Shown: positions 11,362 to 64,000, counted from the stretch's first letter. The stretch: DNA of 64,000 bases from an uncultured delta proteobacterium (GCA_963796685.1 CAWCMR010000005.1:160001-224000); one strand, 5' to 3'. The notes: a model not told the origin generated them from the sequence alone. Program-made: numbers and translations.

Positions 11362-11371
11362 ACCGAAGCCG

Positions 11372-48845: not shown

Positions 48846-48995
48846 CCCCTCCGAGGGTACTCCTCGTCGGCTCGTGCTAGCCCCTCCTAGGGTACTCGCT
48901 AGCCCTCCGTGCTAGCCCCTCCGAGGGTACTCGCTAGCCCATCCGTGCTAGCCCCTCCGAGGCTACTCCTCCCGCTAGCCCCTCGTCGCTAGCCC
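48841..48995 (+). repeat. Second REP-like cluster (GCTAGCCCCTCCGAGGGTACT variants)
   Basis: About 8 GCTAGCCC units, 4 with a GAGGGTACT-like core. Confidence 0.85.
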
Positions 48996-49066
48996 CGGCG
49001 GTCCCCGCCCCCGCGGATTGGATTTGGTCTCGGGTGCAGGTCCCCTCGATGAGGCCCCCAGGAAGT

Positions 49067-49369
49067 TCAGAGGCGGCGTCCCCAGTAGGCTGGGCGGCGG
49101 CTGTGGTGAGCGATTGCGACGATTTGGATCCGTTCGTCGACCACGCGATAGACGACCGAGAAGGGAAATCGCCGGACGATGTGGCGCCGAGCGCAGGCGA
49201 AAGCGGGCCATCGCTGTGGGGCCGCGACGATCGTGGCGATTGTGTCGTCTACGGCGAGGACGAATTTCGCACCGAGACCACGCTGCCGCCGCTCGTACCA
49301 GCGAGCCGCTAGGCGCAAGTCCAGCGTCGCCTCGGCGTGAATGCTGTATGGCTTCTTAGGGTCGGGCAC
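49067..49369 (-). CDS. RelE/ParE family toxin
   Basis: AARWYERRQRGLG..F, RRFPFSVVY, IVAIAHHSRRPAYW. Confidence 0.85.
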   Translation of the reverse strand: MPDPKKPYSIHAEATLDLRLAARWYERRQRGLGAKFVLAVDDTIATIVAAPQRWPAFACARRHIVRRFPFSVVYRVVDERIQIVAIAHHSRRPAYWGRRL

Positions 49370-49374
49370 GGAGG

Positions 49375-49596
49375 TCAGCAAGGATTCTCGTCTCGGACCT
49401 CGTCCCAGTCGCGAAGGACAGCACGGCCAGCGTCGACATCGGCGCAACGTCGTTCGATCTCGGCGGCCCACGCCTGCTCGATTTCCGCTGAGGCAAAGCC
49501 GCCATGCAAGCTCGCGGCCAGTTTGTCCACTAGCATCTCCCGATCTTTCTCAGGAAGCTCAAGCGCAGCTTCCAGGATTTCCTGCGACTGCCGCAT
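49375..49596 (-). CDS. Addiction module antitoxin (TIGR02574-like)
   Basis: ILEAALELP..RE.LVDKL, WAAEIERR; upstream of the ParE gene. Confidence 0.85.
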   Translation of the reverse strand: MRQSQEILEAALELPEKDREMLVDKLAASLHGGFASAEIEQAWAAEIERRCADVDAGRAVLRDWDEVRDENPC

Positions 49597-49769
49597 GGTT
49601 TGAGTTTAGCGCGTCCACGAGCAGGAGGGAGCATCATTCTGCAGGGTCTCCGTCTCCTATCCCTCGGCTCCTATCCGAGGGTACTTGCTCCGGCTCCTAT
49701 CCGCGGGTACTTCTGCACGAGGGTAATTCTGCGCGCAACTTTCCTGGCAGCGCTTCCGAGAACCCACGC

Positions 49770-50720: not shown

Positions 50721-50920
50721 CCGGCACTCTCTACTCCCGTCAAAGGCGACCAGAGACGCCAACGCGCCCTGGCACGGGCCTACCTGAATGCTGGGGCCAC
50801 GAGACTGCCGCACATCGGATGCGCACACCAGACGGCAGAAAGGCTGCCATTCCACGCACGGATGTCCCCGCACGACGCTATTCCCCCTTACCGTCGGTGC
50901 GGGCTCCACGCGGTGCGGGA

Positions 50921-51220
50921 TCCCCAGATTTACCCTCGGTACGGACTCCCCTGCGGGCTCCACCGGGCTCCCCAGATTTACCCTCGTACGGACTCCGCCA
51001 TGAGATCACAATCTGTGATCTCAAGTTGGGGCGGCCGTCGCACGCCGCCCAGCTCTCCTTGGACGGGTCGTCAGTTGTCAGAACCTGGCCCAACCTGATG
51101 CCTTTCCTGAGAGTTGCGGGACTTGGATCTAGTCTCGGATGCTTGTGGAAGAAAGTTGCTTCAAAAGTACCCTCGGAGAGGAGGAACCTGGAGAAAAGTA
51201 CCCTCGGAGAGGAACCTGGG
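50921..51220 (-). repeat. REP-like repeats downstream of RAYT, inverted orientation
   Basis: CCCCAGATTTACCCTCG(G)TACGGACTCC x2; AAAAGTACCCTCGGAGAGG x2. Confidence 0.8.
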
Positions 51221-51375
51221 ATCACCAGCGACGGCTTCTTGTCATCGTGGAAAGGACACAGCCCGATCAAGTCCGCCCCGTGCCGCTTCAGCTCCACGCC
51301 CCGCGCCTCCGCCAGCCTCTGGATGGAGACCTGGCTTTTCAGCCGCTCGAGCTCGACGTCAGGGACACGTGCCAT
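51221..51375 (-). pseudogene. N-terminal remnant of element primase
   Basis: MARVPDVELERLKS...GLCPFHDDKKPSLVI matches the N-terminus of 57592-60660, then breaks at REP repeats. Confidence 0.9.
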
Positions 51376-51552
51376 CGGAGATCCTCCGGAAAGCTGTCAA
51401 GGGCAAAACGTGGTTTTCACGCCCTCGAAAAGTATCATTGCACCCTGGACATGGAATAGTCCATAGTGGAATATAGTTTCATATGGAATATGCCGTCAGC
51501 CCACGGGGCCGGGCAGATCTGGGCTTACGATCTCGACAGCAAGGAGATCGCT

Positions 51553-51969
51553 GTGAAGAAAGGTCAGGCCACTTTGCTCAAGGACGTAGCCGACACCGGA
51601 CAGCCTGCCAATCGGCTGGCCACTGTCCGCAAAGCTCGCGGGGTGACTCAGGTCGACCTATCTGCCCGTCTCGGCATCACCCAGTCCATGTTGTCGAAGT
51701 ACGAGCGAGGTGATCTTCGCCTCCACGGCAACATGCTGGCGCAGCTCGCCGAGATTCTGTCGGTTTCCACCGACGAGCTTCTCGGCGTCCACGTCACGCC
51801 CCTGGCGACGCCGCCAGCGCTCAAGGACAAGCGACTGCGCCACCGCATTCACCAGATTGACCGTCTGTCCAAGCGCGATCGCGAGGCTCTCATCAGGACC
51901 ATCGATGCCTTCATCGGACGCGCTGAAATCGCCAACAATGATTCGGACTCACGGCGCAAGGCCGGATGA
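51553..51969 (+). CDS. XRE-family HTH repressor
   Basis: RKARGVTQVDLSARLGITQSMLSKYERG; AAGGAG RBS; divergent from primase remnant. Confidence 0.9.
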   Translation: MKKGQATLLKDVADTGQPANRLATVRKARGVTQVDLSARLGITQSMLSKYERGDLRLHGNMLAQLAEILSVSTDELLGVHVTPLATPPALKDKRLRHRIHQIDRLSKRDREALIRTIDAFIGRAEIANNDSDSRRKAG

Positions 51970-52004
51970 GGCACCATCAGCTAAAATCACCACCGGAGAT
52001 CGTC

Positions 52005-52208
52005 ATGGCCGCACCTGCACCTCAGCAGCTCTTCGAGAAGATCGCTCGTCTACCTCCTGCCCGTGTCGCAGAGGTCGAGGACTTCGTGGACTTCCTCGCC
52101 CTACGGAATACCGATCGTCAGCTCGCCCATGCCGCCGCCGCAGCTTCCGTGCCGGCCTTTGCCAAGGTCTGGGACAATCCCGAAGACGACGTCTACGACC
52201 AGACATAA
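52005..52208 (+). CDS. DUF2281-like antitoxin
   Basis: LPPARVAEVEDFVDFL...WDNPEDDVY; paralog of 61233-61436. Confidence 0.8.
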   Translation: MAAPAPQQLFEKIARLPPARVAEVEDFVDFLALRNTDRQLAHAAAAASVPAFAKVWDNPEDDVYDQT

Positions 52209-52217
52209 GGGTCCACC

Positions 52218-52445
52218 ATGCCCTACCATCTCATCTTGATGGCCATCACCAGCCAGATCCGCCCGTCACCAACCGTGGGAGAGATCGCCGTCGTGCACTG
52301 GCAAGCCGCCGGGCTGCTCAAGCCGTCTGTCATCAAGCCCCTACTCACTACCATCGAGGCCAGCCTGGTCATCCGTCAGCTCGGCAAGCTTCACGCCGAC
52401 GACCAAGACAGCCTACGCAAGGTTCTCGCTGCGGTCATCGGCTGA
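52218..52445 (+). pseudogene. PemK/MazF toxin with 36-codon in-frame deletion
   Basis: Aligns to 61451-61786 but lacks GDVIVVPFPFTD..KKRPAVV. Confidence 0.85.
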
Positions 52446-52480
52446 CGGCCGTGCTGGTTAGACAGAAAACTGCCTTGAAG

Positions 52481-52801
52481 TCACTTCCTAGGGGATTTCT
52501 CGGGAAATTCTAGCAGCTCCAAGGGGGGCAGGCCCGCGTCGGCTCGTCGCGCTCGCATCTCTCTTGCCCGCTTCTCCAAAACCCCCTCGCCGGTCTGCGC
52601 CTGACGGGGAAGAATGTTGGGCGTTCGTCTGTCCACACGAGGACACGGAGGAGGTACTGTACCGACGCTGTCCCACGGTAGCGGCCGAACAGACCCGTCC
52701 GGCTCGATCTCCATCCGAAGCACGCCATCTCCGATGAAACCATCTACGTATACTTCATACTCGCCTGGGAGTCCCAACATAGATTTCGGTGTCCGCGACA
52801 T
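52481..52801 (-). CDS. Hypothetical protein, candidate immunity gene of the orphan cassette
   Basis: Lower-GC ORF overlapping the 3' end of the orphan CT; start uncertain. Confidence 0.35.
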   Translation of the reverse strand: MSRTPKSMLGLPGEYEVYVDGFIGDGVLRMEIEPDGSVRPLPWDSVGTVPPPCPRVDRRTPNILPRQAQTGEGVLEKRAREMRARRADAGLPPLELLEFPEKSPRK

Positions 52802-53033
52802 TGTAGTCGACGCCGTACGAATCGAGTATCGGTTGTACTTTTCTAACGACCCAATCCTGAAATTCTGCCTTCGGTAACCCCTCGTATTTGCCTGTCCCGA
52901 TTTCTCCGGTTTCTTCAATGTAGTCCCAGCCCGTCAAGTTCTTGGCAAGTGGATTTCCCCCGAGCGCCTTGTCTATAGCGGCCTTACATTGCCCATTGCA
53001 GTTGGGCGCATCATAAGGTCCACCCCCCTGCTG
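52755..53033 (-). pseudogene. Start-less orphan toxin-CT-like cassette beginning QQGG
   Basis: 92-aa open frame QQGGGPYDAPNCNGQCKAAIDK...GTPRRV begins right after the preceding TAA, at the 12-bp junction. Confidence 0.6.
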
Positions 53034-53636
53034 TTACTTTACACCTCCATCTCGGCGAGTGTTCGAAGTAGGGCCGCTCGACGTACCGACAGATGTCGGC
53101 CTTGCGACAGATGAACTCTTGGCTCCACCAGCAGGCATCTCTAGCTTCAGGTTTCCGAGTTGGGAATCGAAGATTGATTCCGTGAAGCCAAAGATGTCGT
53201 CGTGCAAGGCCTCGACGACCCGCTCGTTGACGTCGAACTCCGCCACGCACCCTTCCGTCCTCCAGCAGTTGCCCCCCGGGACCTCCACACTGTGGTTAAT
53301 CGGAATCACCCATCCTGTGTAGCGCTTGGGAGAAATGATCCGGCACGTCGTCGCAGACCATGTGCGCTCGCCTTCACGGTCCAGAGCAAAGCGAGATCCC
53401 CCGAACTGCCGGAAACCGTTGTAGACAGCTTTGAGTCTTACGCGGGGCCCGGCGGCAATCCGTCGTCGTAGCTCAACCAAGTAATCGCGCGATCCTGGCG
53501 GGCTCGGCATCCCCTTCATCCATTCCAACTCCGACGCCGTCGTTCGACCGGCTCCCGCGCTCTCTGCGAATGCCTCCGAGAACATCAGAACGAATCCCAA
53601 GGCGATGGCGACAGACAACCGTGGTGAGAAGTTCAT
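53034..53636 (-). CDS. Exported putative immunity protein
   Basis: GAGGAGG RBS, signal peptide ending AFA, directly downstream of the HExxH ORF. Confidence 0.6.
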   Translation of the reverse strand: MNFSPRLSVAIALGFVLMFSEAFAESAGAGRTTASELEWMKGMPSPPGSRDYLVELRRRIAAGPRVRLKAVYNGFRQFGGSRFALDREGERTWSATTCRIISPKRYTGWVIPINHSVEVPGGNCWRTEGCVAEFDVNERVVEALHDDIFGFTESIFDSQLGNLKLEMPAGGAKSSSVARPTSVGTSSGPTSNTRRDGGVK

Positions 53637-53647
53637 GGTCAGCCTCC

Positions 53648-54454
53648 TCAATAGATCTGTGTAATGCTTGTCGGCGCAATCTGCCGATTGGTCAGGTTGC
53701 AGAGACTTCCAGACGCTGCCATTTGCGCGTTCAAGAATGACTCTATGCCCTGGTAGTTGATCTGCCCGCTACTGATCATACTCGGCAAGGGACCCAATGT
53801 AGCCTGAACGCCGCCAAAGGGCTGCAGCTTCATCGCAACATCGACGGTCGTCGCCCATGCCTCATACTCGGTCCCACCAAGCAGGTGAGTGTACTCGTGC
53901 ATGAATCCAATTACTGTACTTTCGGTCGATGCATTCTGGTTGATGTAGATGGCCGTGCGGTTTTCGCCGCCGTAGCGCGTCCAGGCAATGGCCTGATCCT
54001 TCACTATTACGGTCTTTCCGTCAGGTGTCTGAGCCACAACGTCACCTGGGTCGTATAGGTACACCTTGACGTTCTCATCCTGGAGAACTCCAATTGTACC
54101 GTCCGCACCAATCAGCCCAAGTCCCTTTCTGAGACTATCGCCCGTGACACTGTGCCTAAGAACATTCGGGGAGTTGTTGTCTACAGTGGTGCCTTTCGAA
54201 TCGAACGGTAGGTCGCCCCCCTGCTGTGTTTGGTCGCCCCACCGCGTCTCCACCGTAAACCAAGGCATTTCCCTGATGCCTTCCGCAGGCTTACGCCGCT
54301 TCGGCCGGGGTGCGACCTGCCGAAAATTTGTCGCGAGGCCCAGACGTGCGTTTTCGGATCTGCAACACCTCGGCCGAGGGCGCGTGCTGGCGCACCGACG
54401 GGTGTTCCCCGTCGAGACTTCTTTTTTAGCTGCCTGCTGCTGAGCCAGGACCAT
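53648..54454 (-). CDS. Constant leader + variable zincin-like toxin domain (allele 1)
   Basis: About 80 aa shared with 62510-63331 up to GDQTQQGG, then unrelated lower-GC domain with MHEYTH..EYEAW; true start uncertain. Confidence 0.65.
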   Translation of the reverse strand: MVLAQQQAAKKEVSTGNTRRCASTRPRPRCCRSENARLGLATNFRQVAPRPKRRKPAEGIREMPWFTVETRWGDQTQQGGDLPFDSKGTTVDNNSPNVLRHSVTGDSLRKGLGLIGADGTIGVLQDENVKVYLYDPGDVVAQTPDGKTVIVKDQAIAWTRYGGENRTAIYINQNASTESTVIGFMHEYTHLLGGTEYEAWATTVDVAMKLQPFGGVQATLGPLPSMISSGQINYQGIESFLNAQMAASGSLCNLTNRQIAPTSITQIY

Positions 54455-54590
54455 CGTGGTGCTGCCGATTCTACCGGGAAGGGCGATTAAGGGAAGGAAG
54501 TCGCCAAGACCGACGGTGGCGCCGGCGAGACGCGCGGCGAGCCCGTCGCCAGCGAGCCAGCGGCGAGCCGGCCCCAGATGGTCGGGCCTC
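54216..54590 (-). repeat. Conserved unit-end segment, copy 1
   Basis: Direct repeat of 63090-63470; hairpins AAGGCAT-7-ATGCCTT, CCGAAAA..TTTTCGG, CCTCGGCCGAGG. Confidence 0.9.
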
Positions 54591-54669
54591 CGACGGTCGT
54601 GTAGAGTTCAAGGCCCAATACTTCTCCCAACGACGGGCAGCTTCCGGTAGAAATGAAGGCACGGCGACC

Positions 54670-54894
54670 ATGCCACCGCTTCCCATCATCTCCGGCGCTG
54701 ACTGCATTCAGGCTCTGCGAAAATTTGGATACGAGTTCGCCCGGCAGAATGGCAGCCACGTGCGCTTGGTGTGTCCCGGACGGATGCCCGTGACCGTACC
54801 GATGCACAAGCCGATCAAGCGCGGGACCCTGCGATCGATTCTCCGCACTGCCGAGATCGAGGTCGAGGTATTCGTGACCGCGTTACGTCGCTAG
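54670..54894 (+). CDS. hicA: HicA toxin
   Basis: ALRKFGY..RQNGSH, VTVPMH..IKRGTLRSIL. Confidence 0.9.
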   Translation: MPPLPIISGADCIQALRKFGYEFARQNGSHVRLVCPGRMPVTVPMHKPIKRGTLRSILRTAEIEVEVFVTALRR

Positions 54895-55109
54895 ACCGCG
54901 ACCTTCGTGATCTCGATTTGGCCCGGCAGCGTCCAGCCTTCGGCTGCCTGATTTTCAAGGCACAGCTCGATGGCTTCGCGGATGTTGGCCAGGGCCTCGT
55001 CCCGGGTGTCGCCCTGGCTGATGCAGCCTGGGATCACAGGACACTCGACGACAAAACCGCCATCTTCGTCGGGCGTCAAAATCACGGGCAGTTCATGCGC
55101 GGTGGCCAT
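54891..55109 (-). CDS. hicB: Short HicB antitoxin without DNA-binding domain
   Basis: DEDGGFVVECPVIPGCISQGDTRDEALANIREAI. Confidence 0.9.
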   Translation of the reverse strand: MATAHELPVILTPDEDGGFVVECPVIPGCISQGDTRDEALANIREAIELCLENQAAEGWTLPGQIEITKVAV

Positions 55110-56187
55110 GGGCCTAGTCTACCAGATTCTGGGACCAGGTCTTGGAGGGGAGCGGACCGACGATTGCCGGCGGCGAGCGCAGCGAGCCGCCTGTGCAATC
55201 GGCGGGACGCGAGCCGGGCGAGATGATGACCCTGTTCATGCTGATCGTCGAGGCGGAGGGCGCAAGCGGGAGCGGCAGAGGCGCCGTGGCCGGCGCCGGA
55301 GCCGCGGTGCCCAAAGAGCGCGCCGTCGGCCGAGGCACGATGCCTGCCCCTCGCCAGCCGGGCCCCGCACACGCGTGCAATGCACGCTGCAGGACGGCTC
55401 GGCCGCCGGACCGGGGCCCGTGGTCCGGCGCCGTTTCCCCCTAGGCGGAGCGGGCGGCGCCGTCCGCGGCGCTCAGATCGCCCGCGTAGCCAGAGCGCCC
55501 CTCCCCTTTGGGGATTCCTTAAAAAAAGGGGGTGCCAGGGGAGGGGTGTCCAGAGGGGAGGGGCGCGGCGGGGGAAACGGCGGCCAAAGCGTGCTTGCAC
55601 GCGTGTGCGTAAGGGGCCCGGCGTCGACCGTGGCGCGATGTCGGCGCCAGGCGCGCGCCGTGGTTTTGTGCACGATCGCCGCGCTGGCGAGCGAGAGCTG
55701 TCGTCGCCGCTTTCCCGGATGCAGCGACCATGCCGAGGCGTCCGATGCGAGCACAAGTTGACCGCCGCTGCGTCCCCGATGGCACTTGCGAGCGAGGCGC
55801 CGCGGCATGGGAGCGTCTACCGTGTGCCGCCGCTTTCTCCGATGGAGTCGCGCGCGCGTGCGCCCGGCAGGGGGCACGCGCGCACGACGGGGCTCGGGCG
55901 AAGATCGCGGCGCTGAGCGCCTGCACGATGGAGTGGACTGGGCCTTGCCAGCGCGAGCGCGGCGCTGGCCGGCGCTCATGTCCCGCGCACCCGCGCGCGA
56001 GCGCGTGCAAGGACCAGGACGCGGTGACCTCGGCACGGATCGCGGCGCTGCGAGCCTCGCACCACCCCGATGGAGCGGGCGCCCGTGCGGTCGCAGCTTG
56101 AGGAAATGCTGTGGCCCAGCTGAAGGTGGAGCGACGGCACGGGCGCCCGCGGGGCCGCAGGCACGGAGCGCGGCTCCCAGCCGCGGC

Positions 56188-56541
56188 TCAAGCGTGGCCA
56201 GATTGCCGCCGCTGGATCACGGTCTCGGTCTCGGCAAGCCACGCCTCGATGGCATCACCACCACCTTGTCCCGCCGCGATCATCAGCTTGCCCAGCATCA
56301 CCAAGCTCGTGCCGTCCAAGTTGTAAAAGACCTCGCCCACGGTCACGTGGCTGCAAGCGGTCCACAACGACCACGCCACCAGCAGCAGCAAGCGCTCGCC
56401 ACTCGACAATGGCCCGCCGCCGTGTTCTGCCAGATCCCTGGCCAGCACCGTCGGTCCCGCGTCGGTCCACAGCTCGGTCAGCCGAGCTCGAGCACAGAAT
56501 GCCCGGCACACCCGCGAAAGTTGCGACTCTGAGCTAAACAC
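56188..56541 (-). CDS. Hypothetical protein coupled to the recombinase gene
   Basis: GAGGAGG RBS; 8-nt overlap with the recombinase stop. Confidence 0.6.
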   Translation of the reverse strand: MFSSESQLSRVCRAFCARARLTELWTDAGPTVLARDLAEHGGGPLSSGERLLLLVAWSLWTACSHVTVGEVFYNLDGTSLVMLGKLMIAAGQGGGDAIEAWLAETETVIQRRQSGHA

Positions 56542-57592
56542 GATCGTCCTCCTCCTCGCCGGACTCGGCGGCTAAAGTAGAAAGCAATTCCTCGGCGTCC
56601 TTCTCGCTGACCGCCGGCTTCTGGCCAGATTCCCGTCGACCGAGATGCGCCCCGGGGTGGGTCAGCTCGTGCACTTCCTTCAGCTTCTTGATCGATACCA
56701 GGGTGTAGATGCTCGTCGTCTCCAGGCTCGCGTGCCCTAGCATCGCCTGGATGAAGCGGATGTCCGCCCCGCTTTCCAGCATCAAGGTGGCCATCGTGTG
56801 ACGGAAAAGATGGCAACTCCCCACCTTGCCGATTTTCGCCTGCTCGATGTAGCCCCGCACGATGTCCGTCAGCGTGTGCGGCATGAAGCCGTTCCCGAGG
56901 TGCGAGATAAACAGCACGCCCTCGTCCGGCTCCACCACGTCCTTGGGCCGTACCTCGACGAGGTACTTTTCGATCCAGGAAAGCGCACGCTCGCCGATGG
57001 GCACCACACGATCTTTCCGGCCCTTCCCGAGCCGCACCATCAGCGTGCCGGCCTCTGGCTGCACGTCGTAGATCCCAAGCCTGACCAGCTCGCTCCGCCG
57101 GATCCCTGTCGAATACAGCGTCTCCAGCATCGCCCGGTCTCGGATCCCGCTTGGTTTCGTCACGTCCGGCAAGCTCAGGACGTGTTCCACCTCGGCGATG
57201 GTCAGCACGTCCCGCGGCAGCCGCCGATCCAGCCGAGGCAGATCGATCTCAGAAGCCGGATTGAAAAGGATCATGTTCGACTTCGCCATCCACTTGAAGA
57301 AGGCCAGCACCGCCGCCAGCCGCTTGTGTTGCGAGGCGATGGTCAGCGGCTTACCGAGCTTCGTCCGGTAGTAGAAGAGCCAGCGCTGGTAGCGCTCCAA
57401 GATCGGCCGCGTGACCTCCGTCGGGTTGCGCAGGCTGCGCTCTTCGCACCAATTGAAGAAAGCCCGCAGGTTGCCCTCGTTCCACTCGATGGTTCCCGGC
57501 GAAAAGTGCTTCGCCCGCCGCATGTCCAGAAACTCGGCAGCTCGTGCCCCGAGCGTCCCGTAGCTTGCAAGCTCGCGCAGTTTCCTGGCCAT
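56534..57592 (-). CDS. XerC/XerD-like tyrosine recombinase
   Basis: RDRAMLETLYSTGIRRSE, GKGRKDR, HLFRH, LGHASLETTSIYT; 1-nt overlap with primase stop. Confidence 0.95.
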   Translation of the reverse strand: MARKLRELASYGTLGARAAEFLDMRRAKHFSPGTIEWNEGNLRAFFNWCEERSLRNPTEVTRPILERYQRWLFYYRTKLGKPLTIASQHKRLAAVLAFFKWMAKSNMILFNPASEIDLPRLDRRLPRDVLTIAEVEHVLSLPDVTKPSGIRDRAMLETLYSTGIRRSELVRLGIYDVQPEAGTLMVRLGKGRKDRVVPIGERALSWIEKYLVEVRPKDVVEPDEGVLFISHLGNGFMPHTLTDIVRGYIEQAKIGKVGSCHLFRHTMATLMLESGADIRFIQAMLGHASLETTSIYTLVSIKKLKEVHELTHPGAHLGRRESGQKPAVSEKDAEELLSTLAAESGEEEDDRV

Positions 57593-60500
57593 CAGTTCAC
57601 CTTGGCCGCGGCTGCGAGTACGACGGGCACATCAGGGTACGATGCGATTTTGGGCTCTACCCCCCTATGTGCTGTTTTCGGGTCAAAACGCCCGTTTTCA
57701 CCATTTCCATCGGGAATTGCAGCCGAAAGCTCACCCCGACCACCCCCCGACACCCCCCCGACTTCGGCCCGACTTGGCCCCGACTTCTTTGCCTCCAGCC
57801 CCGACCACCCGGCCAATACCCCCGACTTCTTTTCGTCGTACCCCAAGCTTCCAGGCTCGATCAGCCCAGACAGAAACGGCGTCCCGTCCTTGCCCTTGCC
57901 ATCATAGGCCAGCTCGTAGACAAAGCCCTGGCCCCGACTCCCGCGGTGCACCGCCAGGTATTCCAGATCTTCCAGGCGCCCAAGGTGGATCTTGAGCTGC
58001 GTGTTCCCCCAGCCGGTCGCGTCCCGCACCTCCCGCCGGCTGAAACGAAAATCCTTCCGCTCCATGCCCAGCCGCTGGCACTCCGCCGTCACGTACGCAT
58101 CTACCAGCAGCAAAAGCCGCCGCGTCTGCGGTGGCAGCTCGTCGAGCGATCGCCCAAGCACCTGGTCGGCCAGGCGGTTTGCCACCGAAATATCATCGAG
58201 AGTGACCTCGATGTACTCGATGGCCTGCACGTCCTGCTGTGCGGTCTTCACCGGCCGTTGATGCTGGTGGAGCAGTGCCACCGTCTCGATCAGCGTCAGG
58301 TATTTCATGTGGTCCCGTCGCGTTCGCGTCTGCCGATCTACAAACGTGAGGTCACGGGCATAGGGGTTCACCACCATCAGCGGACGCAGCAGGCGCTGCG
58401 CGTTCCGGTGGACCTTCAGCACGTCCTTCTTCCCCGCCCGTGCCAGCCGTCCCTCCAGCGTGTGTGCTTCGCGCTGGATCTTGTGAATGGCCTGCGTCTG
58501 CTCCCGGTCTTCGTCGACGGTCAGCACCAGGCACCGATTCAAAAGCTCCTCGTCGATCTCGATCGCCGTCGTGGTCAGAAAGATCATCACCGGTCCCTCG
58601 ACCCGGTATTCGTGCGTGATCAGCTTGCCGCTCTCTGGATCTTTGCCAGTGGATGCGATGGTCAGCTCGCCTTCGCTCTGCAAGACCTTCAGTGCGTACG
58701 AGGCCCGCGAGGCGCCTTCTTCCTCGACGATGGCGAGGATCTTGTGTTTCAGATTCGTCTCGCCCATGTAGAAGAGCGACTGTCCAGTCATCGCCGCGTA
58801 CTTCACCCGCTCTTCCTCGGGCACGAAGGCCAAGACCGCTTCCATCAGCGACGATTTCCCCGCTGCCGACGACGACTGGATCACCACCGCCAGGGGATCT
58901 TCCAGCTTGCGCGACACCGCCGCCAGGTAGCCGACGAGCTTGTTGGTTTCCTCGCCCACCACCCCGCAGCGACGGAAATCTTCGAGGATCCGATCGAGCA
59001 GCCGAGGATCTTTCAGCAGTGCCAGCGCCGCCGCCGTCTCCTCGTCGCTGAGCCGCACCGTCGTGTCTTTCGGCGCCAGTGCAGCCCGAATCTGCTGGTC
59101 TTGTAGTTGTTCCAGCTTCAGCAGCACCTTGCCCAGATCGGCCTTGATCACATCCTCAGTCACGCCAATCTCAAGCGCAGCCTGTTTCACGTAGATCGCG
59201 CGCTGTCGGGCGCCGTACACGTCCAAGGTGTCGACGTGGAAATGCTCGCCGCGACCGACGTGCAGGTTCACCTTCAGTGAGTCGAAGGCCGTGTTCTTCG
59301 CCAGGCCACGCACCCGATAACGACGGTCGCCGAAGCAAAAAATCACGTCTTCGCCCTGATGTTCGCACGGCACGTCTGCCACCGACACAGCCTCGGGCGC
59401 CGTCGTTTCTAAGATCGTCACCGGTGGTGGCTCCAGCGTGGCCTCCGTAGTAGGCGGGGGCTCAGCGTTGGCGGCTAAAGGAAGAGGGGCCGCCACGACT
59501 TCCGACTGCGGCGCTGGCGCCGCCGTGTCCACGGTGAGTTCGCGTTTTTCGCCCTTGCCCATGAAGACCGCGCTTTTCAGCGCCAGTTCCAGCGACTTCG
59601 CGGCCGGCGTCACCTTGCATGCGTATTCGTTCGCGTCCATGTCGCGAGGAAATTGCACGCGGTAGCACGAGATGCCCGCAGCCATCATCTGTGCGGCCAC
59701 CTTCTCCGCGCCACGCTCGCCGGCTTCGTCACGGTCAAACGCGATCAGCACCTGCGTGGTCCCGTAGCGCTTGAAGGCTGCCAGATGCTCGGCAATCGGG
59801 CTTTCCACCCCATAGATCGAGGTGACGTTGCGGAAGCCGTGGCACCAGAAGGTCAGGGCATCGATCAGCGCCTCGCACAGGATGATCGACTTCGACACCC
59901 GCAAGGCTTCCCAGTTGAAGATCCCTCGGTGCGGGCCGGGCAGATACATATGCAGGGGCGTTCCCTCGCGCAGCCCTGCTGTGATCTTCCGCCCGTACAT
60001 CCCCGCCACGTTTCCTTCTTCGTCGAAGATCGGGATCACCACCGAGCCGGTCATGTGCTCGTGCCCGCTCTCCCGCAAAATTCCCAGCTTCTGTAGCCGC
60101 CCCCGGATCTCGCTGCCGGCCTTCCACGCCCGCATCGGCAAGCGCAGCCCCAGCGTCCGGTTGGCGAAGCCCAGCTTAAAGCGGTCGATCATCTCCGACG
60201 ATTGCAGCCCCCGCCCTTCCAGGTACTTCACCGCCTCCGGGCTCTGCTTCAGCGTCTCGTGGTAGTAGCCCACCACCTGCGCCATGATCTCCCGGTCATC
60301 CGCATCCGCCTGCACAGGCGCCGCCAGTTTCCGGATCGTCGCCGTCTTCACCACGTTCGTCGACGGCGACGTCAAAGGCAGATCGGCCCGCAGCAGTTCC
60401 ACCGCGTGCCGAAAGGAAACGCCCTCGGCCTTCATCACCCAGTCGATCACCGACCCGCCCACCTGGCAGGCACCGAGGCAGTGCCAAAGGTTCTTCCGAG

Positions 60501-60660
60501 AGCTGATCACCAGCGACGGCTTCTTGTCGTCGTGAAACGGACACAGGCCAATCAAGTCCGCCCCCTGCCGCTTCAGTACCACGCCCCGTGCCTCCGCCAG
60601 CCGCTGCACCGACACCTCGGACTTCAGCTTCTCGATCTCGGACTCCGGGATTCGGGCCAC
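57592..60660 (-). CDS. Primase-like replication protein: CHC2 zinc finger + TOPRIM + P-loop NTPase
   Basis: CPFHDD..WHCLGAC, CEALIDAL, FDRDEAG, DANE, Walker A SSSAAGKS. Confidence 0.9.
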   Translation of the reverse strand: MARIPESEIEKLKSEVSVQRLAEARGVVLKRQGADLIGLCPFHDDKKPSLVISSRKNLWHCLGACQVGGSVIDWVMKAEGVSFRHAVELLRADLPLTSPSTNVVKTATIRKLAAPVQADADDREIMAQVVGYYHETLKQSPEAVKYLEGRGLQSSEMIDRFKLGFANRTLGLRLPMRAWKAGSEIRGRLQKLGILRESGHEHMTGSVVIPIFDEEGNVAGMYGRKITAGLREGTPLHMYLPGPHRGIFNWEALRVSKSIILCEALIDALTFWCHGFRNVTSIYGVESPIAEHLAAFKRYGTTQVLIAFDRDEAGERGAEKVAAQMMAAGISCYRVQFPRDMDANEYACKVTPAAKSLELALKSAVFMGKGEKRELTVDTAAPAPQSEVVAAPLPLAANAEPPPTTEATLEPPPVTILETTAPEAVSVADVPCEHQGEDVIFCFGDRRYRVRGLAKNTAFDSLKVNLHVGRGEHFHVDTLDVYGARQRAIYVKQAALEIGVTEDVIKADLGKVLLKLEQLQDQQIRAALAPKDTTVRLSDEETAAALALLKDPRLLDRILEDFRRCGVVGEETNKLVGYLAAVSRKLEDPLAVVIQSSSAAGKSSLMEAVLAFVPEEERVKYAAMTGQSLFYMGETNLKHKILAIVEEEGASRASYALKVLQSEGELTIASTGKDPESGKLITHEYRVEGPVMIFLTTTAIEIDEELLNRCLVLTVDEDREQTQAIHKIQREAHTLEGRLARAGKKDVLKVHRNAQRLLRPLMVVNPYARDLTFVDRQTRTRRDHMKYLTLIETVALLHQHQRPVKTAQQDVQAIEYIEVTLDDISVANRLADQVLGRSLDELPPQTRRLLLLVDAYVTAECQRLGMERKDFRFSRREVRDATGWGNTQLKIHLGRLEDLEYLAVHRGSRGQGFVYELAYDGKGKDGTPFLSGLIEPGSLGYDEKKSGVLAGWSGLEAKKSGPSRAEVGGVSGGGRGELSAAIPDGNGENGRFDPKTAHRGVEPKIASYPDVPVVLAAAAKVN

Positions 60661-60813
60661 AGCGCGCCTCCCTTCAAAATCCTGTCAAGTGGAAGATACT
60701 TGTTTTTACCAGTTCCATCGACTCGCCTAGATGGTACTAGTATAATGGTATTTATGCAAGCGCTAATTTCACCATCGGGGCCTGGTCCCGAAATTCGGCC
60801 TTACGATCTGGGC

Positions 60814-61179
60814 ATGCCACAGAGAGCCCCGAAGACCCGGCCAGCCGAGGGCGAGCGCTTGGCCGACCTACGTCGCGCCGCCGGCCTAACCCAAGTCGAG
60901 TTCGCCAAGCTCGTCGGCGAAACCCAGCAAAACATCACCTTCTGGGAGCACAGCGACAAGCCACCACGCTCCGACGTCCTGCCCAAGATGGCCAAGGTCC
61001 TCGGCTGCTCCGTTGAGCAGCTCCTCGGCATCTCACCGCTCGCCGATCGTCGCCCAGGCCCCGTTGGGAAGACCCAACGGGCGTTCGAGGAGGTCGCACG
61101 CCTCCCGCGTTCTCAGCAGGACAAGATCGTCGAAATCGTCGAGGCCCTCGTCGACCAGTACAGACGCAAGGCTAGCTGA
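60814..61179 (+). CDS. XRE-family HTH repressor
   Basis: LRRAAGLTQVEFAKLVGETQQNITFWE; C-terminal RPGP..RLPRSQQ; divergent from primase. Confidence 0.88.
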   Translation: MPQRAPKTRPAEGERLADLRRAAGLTQVEFAKLVGETQQNITFWEHSDKPPRSDVLPKMAKVLGCSVEQLLGISPLADRRPGPVGKTQRAFEEVARLPRSQQDKIVEIVEALVDQYRRKAS

Positions 61180-61232
61180 TGTTGGCGTGCAGCCCGATCC
61201 TTCCTCGGACATCATAAGATCAGGAGACCATC

Positions 61233-61436
61233 ATGCCTGCTACCGCACGTGACCTGCTGTTTGAAAAGATCGATAGACTTCCACCGGCCCGCGTGGCCGA
61301 GATCGAGGATTTCGTCGACTTCCTCGCCTCGCGAGACACCGATCGCGAGCTGGCCCACGCTGCCACCGCAGCGGCCGTGCCTGCCTTTGCCAAGGTCTGG
61401 GACAATCCCGAGGACGACGTCTACAACGACATCTGA
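61233..61436 (+). CDS. DUF2281-like antitoxin
   Basis: AGGAG RBS; LPPARVAEIEDFVDFL; upstream of PemK. Confidence 0.82.
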   Translation: MPATARDLLFEKIDRLPPARVAEIEDFVDFLASRDTDRELAHAATAAAVPAFAKVWDNPEDDVYNDI

Positions 61437-61450
61437 AAGTCGATAGCACC

Positions 61451-61786
61451 ATGCCCTACCGCTTCGGAGACGTCATCGTCGTTCCCTTTCCCTTCACCGA
61501 CCAGTCCGCCACCAAGAAGCGCCCCGCCGTCGTCGTCAGCTCCGAGGCGTATCACCGCGAGCGGCCCGACCTGATCCTGATGGCCATCACCAGCCAGGTG
61601 CGGCCTGCGCCCACGGTTGGCGAGGTCGCTGTCCTGCACTGGCAAGAGGCCGGCTTGCTCAAGCCTTCGGTCATCAAACCCCTGCTCACAACTATCGAAA
61701 CAAGCCTCGTCCTCCGCCAACTCGGCACCCTTCACGCCGATGACCAAGCCAGCCTACGCAAAGTCATTGCCGAAATTCTCGGATGA
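61451..61786 (+). CDS. PemK/MazF family toxin
   Basis: GDVIVVPFPFTD...KKRPAVVVS, AITSQ, GLLKPS. Confidence 0.9.
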   Translation: MPYRFGDVIVVPFPFTDQSATKKRPAVVVSSEAYHRERPDLILMAITSQVRPAPTVGEVAVLHWQEAGLLKPSVIKPLLTTIETSLVLRQLGTLHADDQASLRKVIAEILG

Positions 61787-61895
61787 CAGTGGCCTTCAGG
61801 CCACGCCATCCAGTAGTGCCCATCATCGCCCGCTCCGAGCTCCAGGCCCTTGCAGTCAAGCAGGCCCAGAGCACCCAGCAGAAGACGAAATAGTA

Positions 61896-62513
61896 CTATT
61901 TGTTCGGTGGTGTCGTGTCCTTCCAGCCCTGGGGGACGACGATCTTCTGCCAGCCTGACCAAACAGGCTTCTTGGGAAGGTAGGCTCCCTCTTCGGCACC
62001 GGGCCAGTTGTCTCGCGACATGTATGACATGCCCATCGTCAACGCCTCACCTGGTACGAGGCTGTAGCAATATGGGTAGAATCTATACTTGAACTCGATC
62101 TTCTCGCCCGGCCGAAGGCTTCGAAAATCGGATATCTCCTTGCCTTTGCTAAAGGGCTCGGAACACAACCAGTGAACGGTCCTATGGTGTTCATCTGAAA
62201 TAGCAATCTCGACTTCGTATGAACGCGAGCCCAGGCCTGCACTCCCCTCGCCAACACTCGGCTTCGAATCTATCCAGAAGGTGCGGTCCGACGTTGGGTT
62301 TGCCAGTGTCATGTTCACAATGACCTCAGTGGCTGACGAAACTTGGTTGAAGGTAAAAGACAACCCCTCCACCCGTGCTTCAGACTCTGCCAGAGCACCT
62401 GGCGTGCTCTTCTCGCTCTGGGTATTCGTCGGCATAGACGAAGGCTTTACACCGACACCTGCATGACAGCCAACCATCACGGAGATGGCAGCAGCAATCG
62501 CGGCAATCCTCAC
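61896..62513 (-). CDS. Putative immunity lipoprotein
   Basis: GTGA coupling to the toxin stop; signal RIAAIAAAISVMVGC; lower GC. Confidence 0.65.
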   Translation of the reverse strand: MRIAAIAAAISVMVGCHAGVGVKPSSMPTNTQSEKSTPGALAESEARVEGLSFTFNQVSSATEVIVNMTLANPTSDRTFWIDSKPSVGEGSAGLGSRSYEVEIAISDEHHRTVHWLCSEPFSKGKEISDFRSLRPGEKIEFKYRFYPYCYSLVPGEALTMGMSYMSRDNWPGAEEGAYLPKKPVWSGWQKIVVPQGWKDTTPPNK

Positions 62514-63331
62514 TTGATGTAGCACGATGTAGCGGGGCATTGGTCTCCATTCCCTAATTGATAATTGTACGGCCAGTTTGCCACTCGGCTGGAATAGGGC
62601 GAGTTCCTGAGAACGTCAGTCAGTTCCGCAATCTTGTCAACCTCAACGCCCCATTCACTCTCCAGACCGGGGTTGCCCGCGAATGAGTACTGATTCGTGA
62701 CATCAAGTCCCCTTCGGTACCCTTCAAGTTCGTTTAGGGCGCGGGCGTACTTGTAGTTCTGGGAACTCGGATTAGCAAAATTCGCAGACATGACCTGTCC
62801 TACGTGAACTCCCTCGTGCTCGACTACGACGTTGAGAAGCGCATCGCCTTGAAACGCATCTGGCGAAATCTTGACCCGTCCGTACATGTCCGTTACGCCA
62901 AGCTTCTCCGTTCCCGCAAGTGTCTGGTCGATAGTTGCTCGGCCTTCCAAAGACGTCCCTTTGGTGTACGTATCTAATGTCGCCTGATCTACTGACAACC
63001 CCGCTCCATCACCGCCCATCGGTGTTCCCTCCATCATTGCCTTTGTGGTCACCAGGTTCTGCACCTTGTCCGCGCCGCTGCCTCCCCCACCCCCCTGCTG
63101 TGTTTGGTCGCCCCACCGCGATTCCACCGTAAACGAAGGCATTTCCCTGATGCCTTCCGCAGGCTTACGCCGCTTCGGCCGGGGCGCGACCTGCCGAAAA
63201 TTTGTCGCGAGGCCCAGACGTGCGTTTTCGGATCGGCAACACCTCGGCCGAGGGCGGGAGCTTGCACACCGACGGGCGCCCCACCTGGAGGCTTTTTCTT
63301 TAGCCGCTTCGTCGATGCCGAGGACCATCAC
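62510..63331 (-). CDS. Constant leader + variable zincin-like toxin domain (allele 2)
   Basis: Same leader to GDQTQQGG, then a different domain with EHEGVH...NELEGY. Confidence 0.65.
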   Translation of the reverse strand: MMVLGIDEAAKEKASRWGARRCASSRPRPRCCRSENARLGLATNFRQVAPRPKRRKPAEGIREMPSFTVESRWGDQTQQGGGGGSGADKVQNLVTTKAMMEGTPMGGDGAGLSVDQATLDTYTKGTSLEGRATIDQTLAGTEKLGVTDMYGRVKISPDAFQGDALLNVVVEHEGVHVGQVMSANFANPSSQNYKYARALNELEGYRRGLDVTNQYSFAGNPGLESEWGVEVDKIAELTDVLRNSPYSSRVANWPYNYQLGNGDQCPATSCYIK

Positions 63332-63470
63332 CTGGCCCCGATTCTACCGGGAAGAGCAGCTAAGGGAAGGAAGTTGGCAAGGCCAGCGGTGGCGCCGGCG
63401 AGCGGTGAAGCGAGCCCATCGCCAGCGAGCGAGCCGCGAGGCCGGCCCCGGATGCGCGGGGCTGCCGCGA
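63090..63470 (-). repeat. Conserved unit-end segment, copy 2
   Basis: Direct repeat of 54216-54590. Confidence 0.9.
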
Positions 63471-63480
63471 CGGCCAAGGA

Positions 63481-63777
63481 CTACCGTTGTGTCCAGTAGC
63501 CTTGCCGACGCTTGAGATGAGCGACGGCCACGATTCCGATCTCGTCGTCGGATATCTCACGATAGATGATGGCGTAGGGATAGGGTCCAAGGAGGACGCG
63601 ACGGACGCCGCCTATCAAGGGCCATCGGCGTGGTGACTCGACGATTTCACCGACACGATGGCGAATGGCGGCAATGAAGCGAGCACCCAAGCCAGCCAGA
63701 CGCTCCTCGTACCAAGAGGCAGCATCCTGCAGCTCTGCCTCGGCGAGAGGATTGAAGCGAAGGCGTCTACTTGCCAC
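63481..63777 (-). CDS. RelE/ParE family toxin
   Basis: AEAELQDAASWYEERLAGLG, YPYAIIY, VAVAHLKRRQGYW. Confidence 0.88.
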   Translation of the reverse strand: MASRRLRFNPLAEAELQDAASWYEERLAGLGARFIAAIRHRVGEIVESPRRWPLIGGVRRVLLGPYPYAIIYREISDDEIGIVAVAHLKRRQGYWTQR

Positions 63778-63991
63778 CGAAGCGTTGCTCGAGACGAGCG
63801 AAGACCTCGTCGGCCGGGATGGTCGCGACTCTGCCGGCATCGACGTCTTCGATGCGGCGTTGGATTTCGGCTTCCCAGTACTCCCCGAGATCTCCAAGCT
63901 CCAGGCTTGCCGCGAGCTTGTCGACCAGGACCTCACGCTGCTCTTGCGGCAGCTGAAGTGCGGCTTCCAGAATTTCCTGCGACTGCAGCAT
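63767..63991 (-). CDS. Addiction module antitoxin (TIGR02574-like)
   Basis: Paralog of 49375-49596 (QSQEILEAAL.LP..RE.LVDKLAASL). Confidence 0.88.
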   Translation of the reverse strand: MLQSQEILEAALQLPQEQREVLVDKLAASLELGDLGEYWEAEIQRRIEDVDAGRVATIPADEVFARLEQRFGGK

Positions 63992-64000
63992 GCTCCAAGT

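Follow-up and report, generated by a model that had tools for sequence, protein, structure and literature searches.

How do several different toxin tips come to stand behind one short coding site, each read in frame from it, and do the primase and recombinase genes between them account for the exchange? We addressed this in a 64,000-nucleotide stretch of DNA from an uncultured delta proteobacterium (GCA_963796685.1 CAWCMR010000005.1:160001-224000), referred to as the window. The genome under study is called G000, and positions past the right edge are given as window-equivalents (C5:231855 = 71855).

A Short Core Marks the Junctions of Variable Toxin Tips

A search of the window found CCCCCCTGCTGT, read as QQGG on the minus strand, in exact copies at 53023, 54216 and 63090. 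An earlier note on this DNA had reported these positions and had read each copy in frame with a different C-terminal domain (CT) of lower GC content; both readings were confirmed, with three different C-terminal ORFs on the minus strand. Allowing up to one mismatch added no further 12-mer in the window (0.38 expected; three were reached in 1 of 100 shuffles). The genome-wide scan that the note had proposed gave six copies, four of them within 19 kb on C5 and all four in the same orientation. The fourth C5 copy (C5:231855, window-equivalent 71855) lies 8765 bp onward, beyond the window edge, and coincides exactly with the QQGG junction of an intact SpvB/FG-GAP/RHS gene. A full-length Rhs gene with QQGG at its tip junction had been predicted past the right edge.

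53023..53034, minus: core J3 (12-mer), from sequence search and junction comparison
54216..54227, minus: core J2 (12-mer), from sequence search, alignment with the congener G002 and junction comparison
63090..63101, minus: core J1 (12-mer), from sequence search and junction comparison
71296-80343 (window-equivalent), minus: SpvB/FG-GAP/RHS toxin gene of 3015 aa, intact, beyond the right window edge

The main gene matches RHS_repeat (7e-18), SpvB and FG-GAP in Pfam. It is full-length and contains RHS/YD repeats; its conserved core end reads ...YDPTVGRFLSPDP...RYTDPTGF in translation.

In the G000 lineage the core is (C)ACAGCAGGGGGG, coding for the QQGG linker after a glycine-rich transmembrane module. 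All seven junctions of G000 and G002 have only ACAGCAGGG-GG in common, and the homology between elements as well as that between G000 and G002 ends exactly there. No second recombinase half-site is evident at the CT side of the core in the seven-junction comparison, because that side is not conserved. Outside the lineage, 1.56 Mb of other loci contained only two matches to the 12-mer, each with one mismatch. Judged from these searches, the 12-mer is lineage-specific and other lineages have different cores inside the toxin gene.

Each Unit Carries a Recombinase, a Primase and Its Own Tip

J2 and J1 (54216-63090) are spaced 8874 bp apart. The XRE regulator, primase, recombinase and two toxin-antitoxin (TA) systems read there previously were all recovered with Pfam. 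On the minus strand the unit runs core, CT, immunity, cargo, XRE, primase/NTPase, XerC-like recombinase, p117, GC-rich DNA, TA slot, ~360-nt leader, core. We call this unit E2; the body of E1 lies beyond the window.

54228..54589, minus: leader 2, the E2 end beside the core, 85% identical to 63102-63463
54670-54894, plus: HicA in the TA slot of E2 (Pfam HicA_toxin, 6e-18)
54891-55109, minus: HicB-like gene in the TA slot of E2 (Pfam HicB_lk_antitox, 7e-12)
55135..56190, no strand: GC-rich (0.70-0.76) conserved stretch, part of the 87% identical backbone
56191..56541, minus: p117, a small conserved protein with strong codon periodicity
56534..57592, minus: XerC-like tyrosine recombinase of E2 (Phage_integrase, 4e-38)
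57592..60660, minus: primase (CHC2 zinc finger, DnaG_N, Toprim) with a C-terminal P-loop NTPase region (Pfam)
60808..61179, plus: XRE-family regulator, divergent from the primase (HTH_3, 1.4e-12)
61233..61786, plus: cargo TA pair, DUF2281 antitoxin and PemK/MazF toxin (Pfam)
63102..63463, minus: leader 1, the E1 end, repeated as leader 2
63481..64000, minus: TA slot of E1, ParE toxin and Unstab_antitox antitoxin (Pfam), running off the window

E1 and E2 share a backbone with 87% identity along 6.1 kb, while CT, immunity and cargo differ, and the recombinase and primase ORFs are intact in both. The E2 recombinase scores 427.9 bits with NF002331 (cut-off 371). Among nine recombinase homologues, R165/R166, K190, H261, R264, H287 and Y296 are invariant; after the pattern of XerD we take them to be the R-K-H-R-H-Y catalytic set, which by this alignment is complete. 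The primase has a dnaG domain in NCBIfam (5e-50). Its C-terminal half matches only DUF5906, below the cut-off (E = 0.0086), and a Walker-A-like SSAAGKS can be read from the translation of this region. p117 is conserved in E1 and G002 and has no Pfam or NCBIfam match. The GC-rich stretch has no codon periodicity and is open in all six frames; it is probably non-coding and a possible candidate for an origin or arm region. The TA slot of E2 spans 54670..55109. No transfer genes were found, and neither tRNA nor tmRNA in positions 44000-64000 of the window or in L001.

The leader repeat is 374-376 bp long at 85% identity. The ~190 nt beside the core are almost invariant, with a conserved ATG 16 codons before QQGG, and substitutions among four aligned copies fall on the codon positions 18/11/19, with no third-position bias. 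Outside the core, leader and main Rhs gene have no homology, so that they share only 12-15 nt. The displaced tips thus keep no rhs core fragment as a substrate for homologous recombination; the 360 nt upstream of them are element leader.

Toxin Tips and Putative Immunity Genes

The stretches behind the cores have a GC content of 0.53-0.58, compared to 0.62-0.65 in the backbone.

62513..63100, minus: CT1, putative toxin tip with HEGVH motif, in frame with QQGG
61896..62540, minus: putative immunity 1 (ORF), lipoprotein-like N-terminus with a lipobox recognized by eye
53651..54226, minus: CT2, putative toxin tip with HEYTH motif, in frame with QQGG
53037..53651, minus: putative immunity 2 (ORF), signal-peptide-like N-terminal segment recognized by eye
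52758..53033, minus: CT3, 92-codon orphan toxin tip lacking a start codon, in frame with QQGG
52481..52801, minus: possible CT3 immunity gene (uncertain), ORF in another frame overlapping the CT3 end

CT0, the tip of the main gene, and CT1 to CT3 are mutually different, lower in GC and each accompanied by a downstream ORF, as in arrays of variable tips. A coupled downstream gene, claimed for every window copy, was found for CT1 and CT2 and is uncertain for CT3. The labels "toxin" and "immunity" were given by position and context, because none of the CT and immunity ORFs, CT1 and CT2 included, has a Pfam or NCBIfam family match; we infer that they are toxins and antidotes. Among the atlas leads, that of CT1 is a cluster with Tox-MPTase4 in 15% of its members (score 0.90). 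Those of CT2 are only metallopeptidase-toxin clusters, all below 0.9 for clusters with a family name.

CT2 and its immunity gene stand between two cores as a cassette of 1193 bp that lacks a backbone, an arrangement that a simple integration model leaves unexplained. CT3 has no leader, and its QQGG directly follows the TAA stop of the preceding gene. It is 50-60% identical (aa) to CTc of G002, and 52649-52768 is 65% identical over 40 aa to the DNA downstream of CTc.

Decayed Copies and Related Genomes

Parts of the gene order had been said to recur on both sides of E2, and the order does: as a full copy beyond the window on the right and as a decayed copy (49067-52446) on the left. The latter is the oldest element, E3.

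49067..49596, minus: ParE-like toxin and antitoxin remnant at the far (left) end of E3 (ParE_toxin, Pfam)
50878..51375, minus: truncated E3 primase N-terminus; 51220-51374 is 82% identical to 60505-60659
51466..52446, plus: E3 XRE-like regulator and MazE/MazF remnant (MazF truncated), similar to the E2 cargo region

Further matches connect 49507-49646 with 63902-64041 (74% identity) and 51995-52446 with 61223-61787 (77-81%). The truncated primase keeps its CHC2 motif and is then broken at REP-like repeats (51165-51213). The XRE-like HTH of E3 was assigned by reading the translation only.

The alignment of G000 54216-60627 with G002 291709-298133 begins precisely at the 12-mer. Breakpoints scattered over the ~370 bp repeat, which the earlier note had named as evidence against its reading, are therefore not what is found. 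Short direct repeats bound the element on both sides, and the cross-genome alignment gives its exact boundary. The backbones of G000 and G002 are 88-91% identical, compared to 92-93% in the flanking chromosome, and their CT sets differ in all tips. Because the backbones have diverged about as far as the flanking chromosome while every tip differs, cassette exchange independent of whole-element movement appears possible. In G411, from another genus, the layout and the linker it occupies are the same, the core is a 15-nt variant, GAGCCAGGGGGGCGG, and the element has lost primase and Xer. The elements in G002 and G411 are both decayed.

Near-Identical Arrays Point to Integration Inside the Toxin Gene

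We examined four independent arrays (L122, L130, L059 and L087), three of them from cultured strains. Each holds two copies of a 6.4-7.8 kb unit that are 99.6-100% identical, the mismatches in L122 being confined to the last 185-bp core segment. In each array three cores delimit the units; they measure 24, 14, 13 and 11 nt, respectively. On the left side of the cores, toxin gene and leader have different sequences; on the right side, copies 1 and 2 agree and copy 3 is distinct. Therefore, the three cores correspond to attL, an attP-like site and attR; the toxin gene carries the new tip, and the old one closes the array. All four arrays display this pattern, whereas the copies in G000 are only 87% identical. 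It supports the claim that tips are replaced by integration at the core, which attaches the incoming CT to the toxin gene already present, and adds to the unit anatomy and sharp core-bounded junctions observed in G000.

We consider it likely that the locus consists of tandem integrative mobile elements inside the 3' end of an Rhs gene, each plugged in by a recombinase with its own tip. The recombinase would cross the element core (attP, between leader and CT) with its identical counterpart inside the toxin gene (attB). Integration would bring the incoming CT in frame with the resident delivery scaffold and move the previous CT-immunity pair behind the element, with the leader now in front. Successive integrations would give Rhs-CT0 (E1) leader-CT1 (E2) leader-CT2-imm2, CT3 (E3, decayed), and excision from one core to another would return an older tip to the toxin gene. 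The exchange would be catalysed by the Xer-like enzyme through a circle that presumably exists and replicates; what suggests self-replication is the primase together with the weak DUF5906/P-loop region. Displaced immunity genes may be expressed from the leader.

Alternative Explanations

Could RecA-dependent homologous recombination have produced the array, with the primase-Xer elements as passengers between orphan tips? Identity of 11-15 nt is below what RecA recombination requires. The shared sequence is 12-15 nt in G000 and 11-14 nt in L087, L059 and L130, the breakpoints coincide exactly, and elements and toxin genes co-occur across phyla, always on the same strand. On the other side, G296 has, next to its elements, element-free orphan tips that share 400-600 bp of homology with the rhs core, core copies reach up to ~700 bp in some relatives, and a RecA displacement model is in print (Jackson 2009, as far as its accessible text goes). 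Overall we regard this explanation as quite unlikely. Unlikely, too, is an array built up for the most part through tandem duplication or unequal crossing-over, combined with cassette exchange at the core; whole elements, domesticated or dead, would then move rarely or not at all today. The G000-G002 divergence with its wholly different tips, the CT2-imm2 cassette lacking a backbone and the decay of E3 and of the G002 and G411 elements all fit this origin; against it stand the intact recombinase and primase ORFs of E1 and E2, five unit-length contigs that assemble as circles or tandems, and the 50-61% identity that the recombinase keeps between phyla, implying that it spread horizontally.

The element could also be delimited as XRE-primase-Xer-leader-core-CT-immunity and inserted downstream of a resident immunity gene, so that the Rhs-attached tip would be the original one. 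Gene order would then be identical, N elements accompanying N+1 tips, and G000 alone does not distinguish the two readings, but this one requires an attB within the hypervariable sequence that follows unrelated immunity genes and predicts the reverse of what 4 of 4 arrays contain, where tip 1 equals tip 2 and the last differs; we hold it to be very unlikely. That the 12-mer merely reflects coinciding codon choice in a conserved QQGG linker, rather than a DNA site, has a negligible chance of being right. Homologous Rhs C-termini in the family do end in a (Q)QGGG linker, yet at J3 the 12-mer is kept without change immediately behind a stop codon, with nothing upstream co-translated, leaders not derived from Rhs carry it, and the other loci hold just the two one-mismatch matches.

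Primase-Xer Elements Occur across Phyla

Within the class, the primase was found at E<=1e-60 in 17 of 401 genomes. Primase-Xer pairs with 50-61% identity are spread over many phyla, often in tandem; primase matches accompany Xer in most of 78 loci from many phyla, 16 of which hold 2-3 copies. These relatives sit just downstream of Rhs genes (once a CdiA-like gene), always on the same strand. With an Rhs-end HMM made iteratively from these same loci, an Rhs core end was detected <=5 kb upstream in 24 of 37 copies (those with >=4 kb upstream) and <=3.5 kb downstream in 27 of 56 (those with >=2.5 kb downstream). All 111 Rhs-end matches lie on the Xer strand, and about half of the sampled copies have no detectable Rhs end nearby. 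The target is an Rhs gene with a YwqJ deaminase CT in L130 and a CdiA-like gene in L110. Among 158 loci, five consist of an entire contig whose ends overlap exactly; these may be circles or collapsed tandems. In sequencing runs holding the G000 DNA, the joints in short assembled contigs were variants of related elements, with no circular junction or empty site among them. We lean slightly towards a cross-phylum integrase-primase family specialised on polymorphic-toxin genes (Rhs and at least one CdiA-like), carrying tip and antidote behind a short in-frame core.

Relation to Known Systems and Implications

We found no paper describing integrase-primase elements that swap toxin tips. Shufflons and invertases exchange a protein's C-terminal segment by site-specific recombination at short repeats, inverting resident segments between inverted repeats. 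The present elements likewise exchange C-terminal segments at short repeats, but the four C5 cores are direct repeats in one orientation, and a mobile element brings in the new segment. As in integrons, CT2-imm2 is a promoterless cassette between two short sites with a tyrosine recombinase adjoining; unlike there, the other cassettes move with a replication and recombination backbone, and the enzyme stays below the cut-offs for IntI-type integrases (TIGR02249, 112.3 bits, cut-off 265; NF011946, 84, cut-off 435). Compared with P4-like primase-helicases, the primase domains are clear, while the helicase side offers only the sub-cut-off DUF5906 match (E = 0.0086).

A study of Bacteroidales orphan-immunity arrays reportedly linked a tyrosine recombinase to the accumulation of toxin-immunity genes. 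Zhang et al. 2012 (PMC3482391) likewise noted XerC/D-type recombinases beside polyimmunity loci. This link is shared by our elements, but polyimmunity loci are immunity-gene arrays without tips fused to a delivery gene, and the available portions of those reports describe neither a primase nor an in-frame core inside a toxin ORF. Tycheposons, according to the available parts of their description (bioRxiv 10.1101/2020.12.28.424599), are small, have an Xer-like tyrosine recombinase and often primase/helicase genes plus cargo, and integrate successively at one site, neighbours being separated by partial target copies. Recombinase, primase, cargo and side-by-side arrangement are alike; tycheposons, as described there, target tRNA genes, whereas the target here is a polymorphic-toxin coding sequence whose protein C-terminus is rewritten. 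The closest likeness in layout is to the arrays of Jackson et al. 2009 (PMC2935791), where, in the accessible text, a full-length rhs gene precedes displaced tip/immunity pairs, new tips arise beside the core, old ones are shunted downstream and a circular intermediate is postulated. In contrast to the arrays presented there, displaced tips here have an element-derived leader and only 12-15 nt of identity, and each unit has its own tyrosine recombinase and primase.

If our reading is true, the circular intermediate postulated in 2009 for C-terminal displacement would be supplied, made by an integrase. It would also allow a possible drive, in which carriers kill element-free siblings and retained old immunity genes protect the carrier from its kin. 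Rhs C-terminal displacement, long known, would thereby gain an enzyme.

A 12-nt core precedes different putative toxin tips in a Rhs gene and its downstream array

The 12-mer CCCCCCTGCTGT occurs exactly at window positions 53023, 54216 and 63090, with no further copy in the window at up to one mismatch; 0.38 copies are expected by chance, and a count of three was reached in 1 of 100 shuffles. Across the assembly (7.3 Mb in 26 contigs, the window being C5:160001-224000) six copies were found, four of them on C5 within 19 kb and in one shared orientation. Read on the minus strand, each of these four encodes QQGG, and the ORF that continues from it in frame differs from copy to copy. The QQGG-linked ORFs and the genes behind them have a GC content of 0.53-0.58, compared to 0.62-0.65 in the surroundings. 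The three sites in the window, each leading into a different low-GC C-terminus (CT, the toxin tip), were all found as the earlier note had described them. A direct repeat of 374-376 bp (85% identity) is present at 54216 and 63090.

The genome scan and the full-length Rhs gene with a QQGG junction that the note had anticipated past the right edge converged on one place. The fourth C5 copy lies outside the window at C5:231855, 8765 bp to the right of the third, at the QQGG junction of an unbroken 3015-codon ORF with SpvB, FG-GAP and RHS_repeat domains (L001, the C5 locus extending beyond the window, 9296-18343, minus strand; window-equivalent 71296-80343). The end of its Rhs core (...RYTDPTGF) is followed by about 150 Gly/Ala-rich hydrophobic residues, then ...NPVDQATQQGG and finally CT0, a tail of 189 residues. 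The Gly/Ala-rich transmembrane-like module between core end and linker (L001 9866-10300, Rhs residues ~2680-2826) is kept at 42-63% identity across the family, where at least 12 genomes have it in their Rhs genes. Because this module precedes the QQGG linker, the exchange point lies inside the released C-terminal fragment, behind a possible translocation module.

At J3, the 12-mer copy at 53023, the exact 12-mer is kept immediately after a TAA stop, which points to a site read at the level of DNA. Judged from the Rhs C-termini across the family, which have (Q)QGGG in common, the core also coincides with a conserved linker. When seven junctions were aligned (two Rhs|CT, four leader|CT and one immunity|CT), only ACAGCAGGG-GG was invariant, with a single mismatch in one copy of the congener G002. 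The 12-mer had only two matches in 1.56 Mb of related loci at up to one mismatch, both out of context. By eye, neither an inverted repeat around the core nor a core consensus across lineages could be established; CCAAACA is present in the cores of the source genome and of L059, a relative's array, and approximately in that of a second relative (L130), and G-runs occur in several cores.

Organization of the array

The array reads from right to left on the minus strand, (+) marking genes on the plus strand:

Rhs gene: Rhs-QQGG-CT0, then a 94-aa membrane-like ORF, then an SseB-like gene (+)
Element E1: XRE (+), 1033-aa primase, 352-aa recombinase, 116-aa ORF, GC-rich DNA, antitoxin and ParE, leader 1
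After leader 1: QQGG-CT1, immunity 1, DUF2281/PemK (+)
Element E2: XRE (+), 1022-aa primase, recombinase, p117, GC-rich DNA, HicA and HicB-like gene, leader 2
After leader 2: QQGG-CT2, immunity 2, TAA stop, directly followed by QQGG-CT3 (92 codons)
Element E3, decayed: possible immunity gene, MazEF remnant, XRE-like gene, primase N-terminus cut at REP-like repeats
Element E3, continued: 459-aa ORF without an assigned role, ParE pair

The backbones of E1 and E2 are 87.3% identical over 6090 bp, and the slot between GC-rich DNA and leader holds different toxin-antitoxin (TA) pairs in the two. The segment 55135-56190 is without codon periodicity and probably non-coding. The recombinase scored 427.9 bits against NF002331 (‘XerC’ subfamily; cut-off 371) and far under the cut-offs for integron integrases, and its catalytic residues are invariant across nine homologues. 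CT1 and CT2 carry HExxH motifs, and atlas look-ups gave no more for these two tips than leads pointing to metallopeptidase-toxin clusters. None of the CT or immunity ORFs matched a family, whether in NCBIfam or in Pfam with E values up to 5. A search of window 44000-64000 and of L001 found neither tRNA nor tmRNA, and an Rfam scan of 44000-64000 gave four matches, every one far under its gathering score.

HicA (+) and the 72-aa HicB-like ORF (-) at window 54670-55109 are convergent with a 4-nt overlap, which is unusual in TA pairs, and only half of the Pfam model is spanned by the HicB-like ORF. The REP-like word CTCCGAGGGTACTT forms dense clusters at window 46954-47810, 48838-48976, 49661-49713 and 51165-51213; of its 21 copies in the genome, C5 has 20, with 17 of these in 46992-47770, and inverted copies lie exactly at the truncation point of the E3 primase. 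REP-like clusters also flank the 459-aa ORF (49341-50720), which has no Pfam match and shares its 3' part (50190-50752) with G002 at 92% identity.

The leader, the ~360-nt element end next to the core, showed no similarity to the Rhs gene outside the core. About 190 nt beside the core are nearly invariant in the four leader copies. An 80-codon ORF upstream of QQGG is open in all four, one with an in-frame 18-nt insertion. It was ruled out as a gene, since the substitutions fall on the three codon positions as 18/11/19, without third-position bias. A conserved ATG in the leader would open MP(S/W)FTV...QQGG. About 45 nt ahead of the core, this ATG is spanned by a perfect inverted repeat, AAGGCAT-CAGGGAA-ATGCCTT, whose 7-nt arms stand 7 nt apart (window 54255-54275 and 63129-63149, minus strand); it is shaped like a recombinase core site, or like an RNA hairpin covering the start codon. 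Promoter and terminator scans of 52400-64000 gave the same counts as shuffles, and nothing in the leaders.

Near-identical arrays in relatives show an attL, attP-like and attR pattern

Four arrays were examined in detail, three of them from strains named in the records.

Arrays of near-identical units in relatives
L122, Polyangiaceae MAG: unit 7792 bp, common core 24 nt
L130, Fluviicoccus keumensis DSM 105135: unit 7128 bp, common core 14 nt
L059, Allorhodopirellula solitaria CA85: unit 7101 bp, common core 13 nt
L087, Sphingobium scionense DSM 19371: unit 6360 bp, common core 11 nt

Each array holds two copies of the unit with 99.6-100% identity and three copies of the core; in L122, all 28 mismatches are confined to the last 185-bp core segment. 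To the left of the core stands a toxin gene unlike the leader at the first copy, and an identical leader at copies 2 and 3. To the right, copies 1 and 2 are the same and copy 3 is not (in L122 with 85% identity, then another tip). This is the attL, attP-like and attR pattern that two tandem integrations would leave. The cores of 11-24 nt are in line with the 12-15 nt in the source genome.

The order of the flanks also bears on the layout of the element. If the element carried its tip at its far end, the opposite order would be predicted, the reverse of what all four arrays have. With the first two copies alike and the third different, two tandem integrations would instead leave the toxin gene carrying the new tip and the old one at the far end.

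Tips differ between related genomes

The orthologous locus of G002 has a like array with three other tips. Positions 54216-60627 of the source genome align with G002 291709-298133 at 91% identity, and the alignment begins exactly at the 12-mer. The two backbones are not more diverged than the chromosome, while all tips differ; tip cassettes may have been exchanged without movement of the whole element. Comparison of the variable regions by tblastx gave mostly noise; we retained only a similarity between CT3 and the G002 tip CTc and a short matching start, GGGGSGADKVQ. The orthologous Rhs gene of G002 (L015-L017, G002:C16:300330-308892) is broken into six or more ORFs, and over its 3' ~6.5 kb there is no DNA match to the source genome; it may represent a pseudogene, a segment that was replaced, or indels from assembly.

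In G411, a genome of another genus of the family, the Rhs protein has the same transmembrane module and ends ...AESQGGGGSG. About 3 kb downstream, a 79%-identical leader with the same 15 nt, GAGCCAGGGGGGCGG, precedes another tip; ParE adjoins this leader, and primase and recombinase are deleted. The G411 Rhs tip (L241, G411:C458, 9513 and upstream) ends ...HITGRALDL...EPWHISYNVGR and by eye resembles a LAS/VanY-type peptidoglycan peptidase.

The element family is widespread and probably targets toxin genes

Among the 401 genomes of the class, 17 have primase homologues (E<=1e-60), often two of them and often at contig ends. In G296, G300, G368, G390 and G163, Rhs C-termini are directly followed downstream by XRE-primase-Xer units, and at the element end in G296 a 53-bp FGARDYDPxVGRWT copy stands in front of a new tip.

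A recombinase-alignment scan with one genome per species returned more than 571 relatives, and metagenomes gave more than 586 recombinase homologues. Myxococcota, Acidobacteriota, Planctomycetota, Verrucomicrobiota, Pseudomonadota and Actinomycetota are among the phyla behind the best 78 loci (50-61% identity); most of these loci have a primase match alongside Xer, and 16 of the 78 hold two or three copies. With a Rhs core-end profile built iteratively on this sample, so that its counts are not independent of it, a Rhs end was matched within 5 kb upstream in 24 of the 37 copies having at least 4 kb upstream, and within 3.5 kb downstream in 27 of the 56 having at least 2.5 kb downstream. All 111 matches were on the recombinase strand, none on the opposite one. 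For the remaining copies the target was not recognised; the source genome would score likewise, its core being too short for the profile. In L130, a Rhs gene with a YwqJ-like deaminase tip is the target. Targets are not confined to Rhs, because the element in L110 (Atopomonas hussainii JCM 19513, 3-4793) lies downstream of a CdiA-like haemagglutinin-repeat protein (Fil_haemagg, DUF637). With just two partial recombinase matches in catalogued viral contigs, the elements are unlike catalogued viruses; no transfer functions were seen in them.

Mobility of the element

Of 23 listed runs, from peat and permafrost metagenomes, 20 contained no more than 35% of the sampled words, and comparisons used assembled contigs. 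In the contigs of four of these runs, we saw no CT1-to-leader 2 joint, core-to-core skip, circle or excision joint; bins 52401-53603 were without cover, a gap that carries no weight as evidence. The joints that did occur (63448->55135 with 18 extra letters; 54433->63319; 52096/52204->61493/61553) can be explained by variants of related elements, mapped at 90% likeness. Among 158 loci retrieved, five (L065, L066, L159, L166, L194) each consist of one whole contig, 7.6-10.4 kb long, with a primase-recombinase pair and exact terminal overlaps of 42-141 nt, and may be episomal circles or collapsed tandems. The primase and a weak DUF5906/P-loop region suggest that an excised circle might replicate.

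We conclude that the feature is real and probably a site-specific integrative element, unusual in its target and consequence. That it exchanges toxin tips at the core is, in our judgement, a well-favoured mechanism. The proposal of an integrative element with its att core at the CT boundary is supported by the core-bounded junctions and by attL/attP/attR in relatives; such an element would be mobile and might replicate itself. The CT2-immunity 2 cassette, which has no backbone, does not fit the simple form of this model.

Relation to known systems and significance

C-terminal displacement was described by Jackson et al. 2009 (PMC2935791), who proposed a hypothetical homologous-recombination circle and remarked that an integrase accompanying rhs was not known. 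For Rhs and other polymorphic toxins, this circle is so far the only explanation of how tips are gained without loss of the old ones. Zhang et al. 2012 (PMC3482391) place XerC/D genes next to polyimmunity loci, and a 2026 preprint mentions Xer-dependent systems beside poly-immunity loci in Xenorhabdus and Photorhabdus. The nearest mobile-element analogue is the tycheposons, whose target is tRNA genes (bioRxiv 10.1101/2020.12.28.424599), whereas a tRNA is absent at the present locus. Our full-text search, which covered the main texts of papers, turned up no account of primase-recombinase elements that integrate within toxin genes.

If true, a dedicated, widespread element with a defined core of 11-24 nt would make tip acquisition directly testable. 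It would also account for assembly breaks at such loci, for some orphan tips without core fragments, and for the movement of toxin repertoires between phyla.
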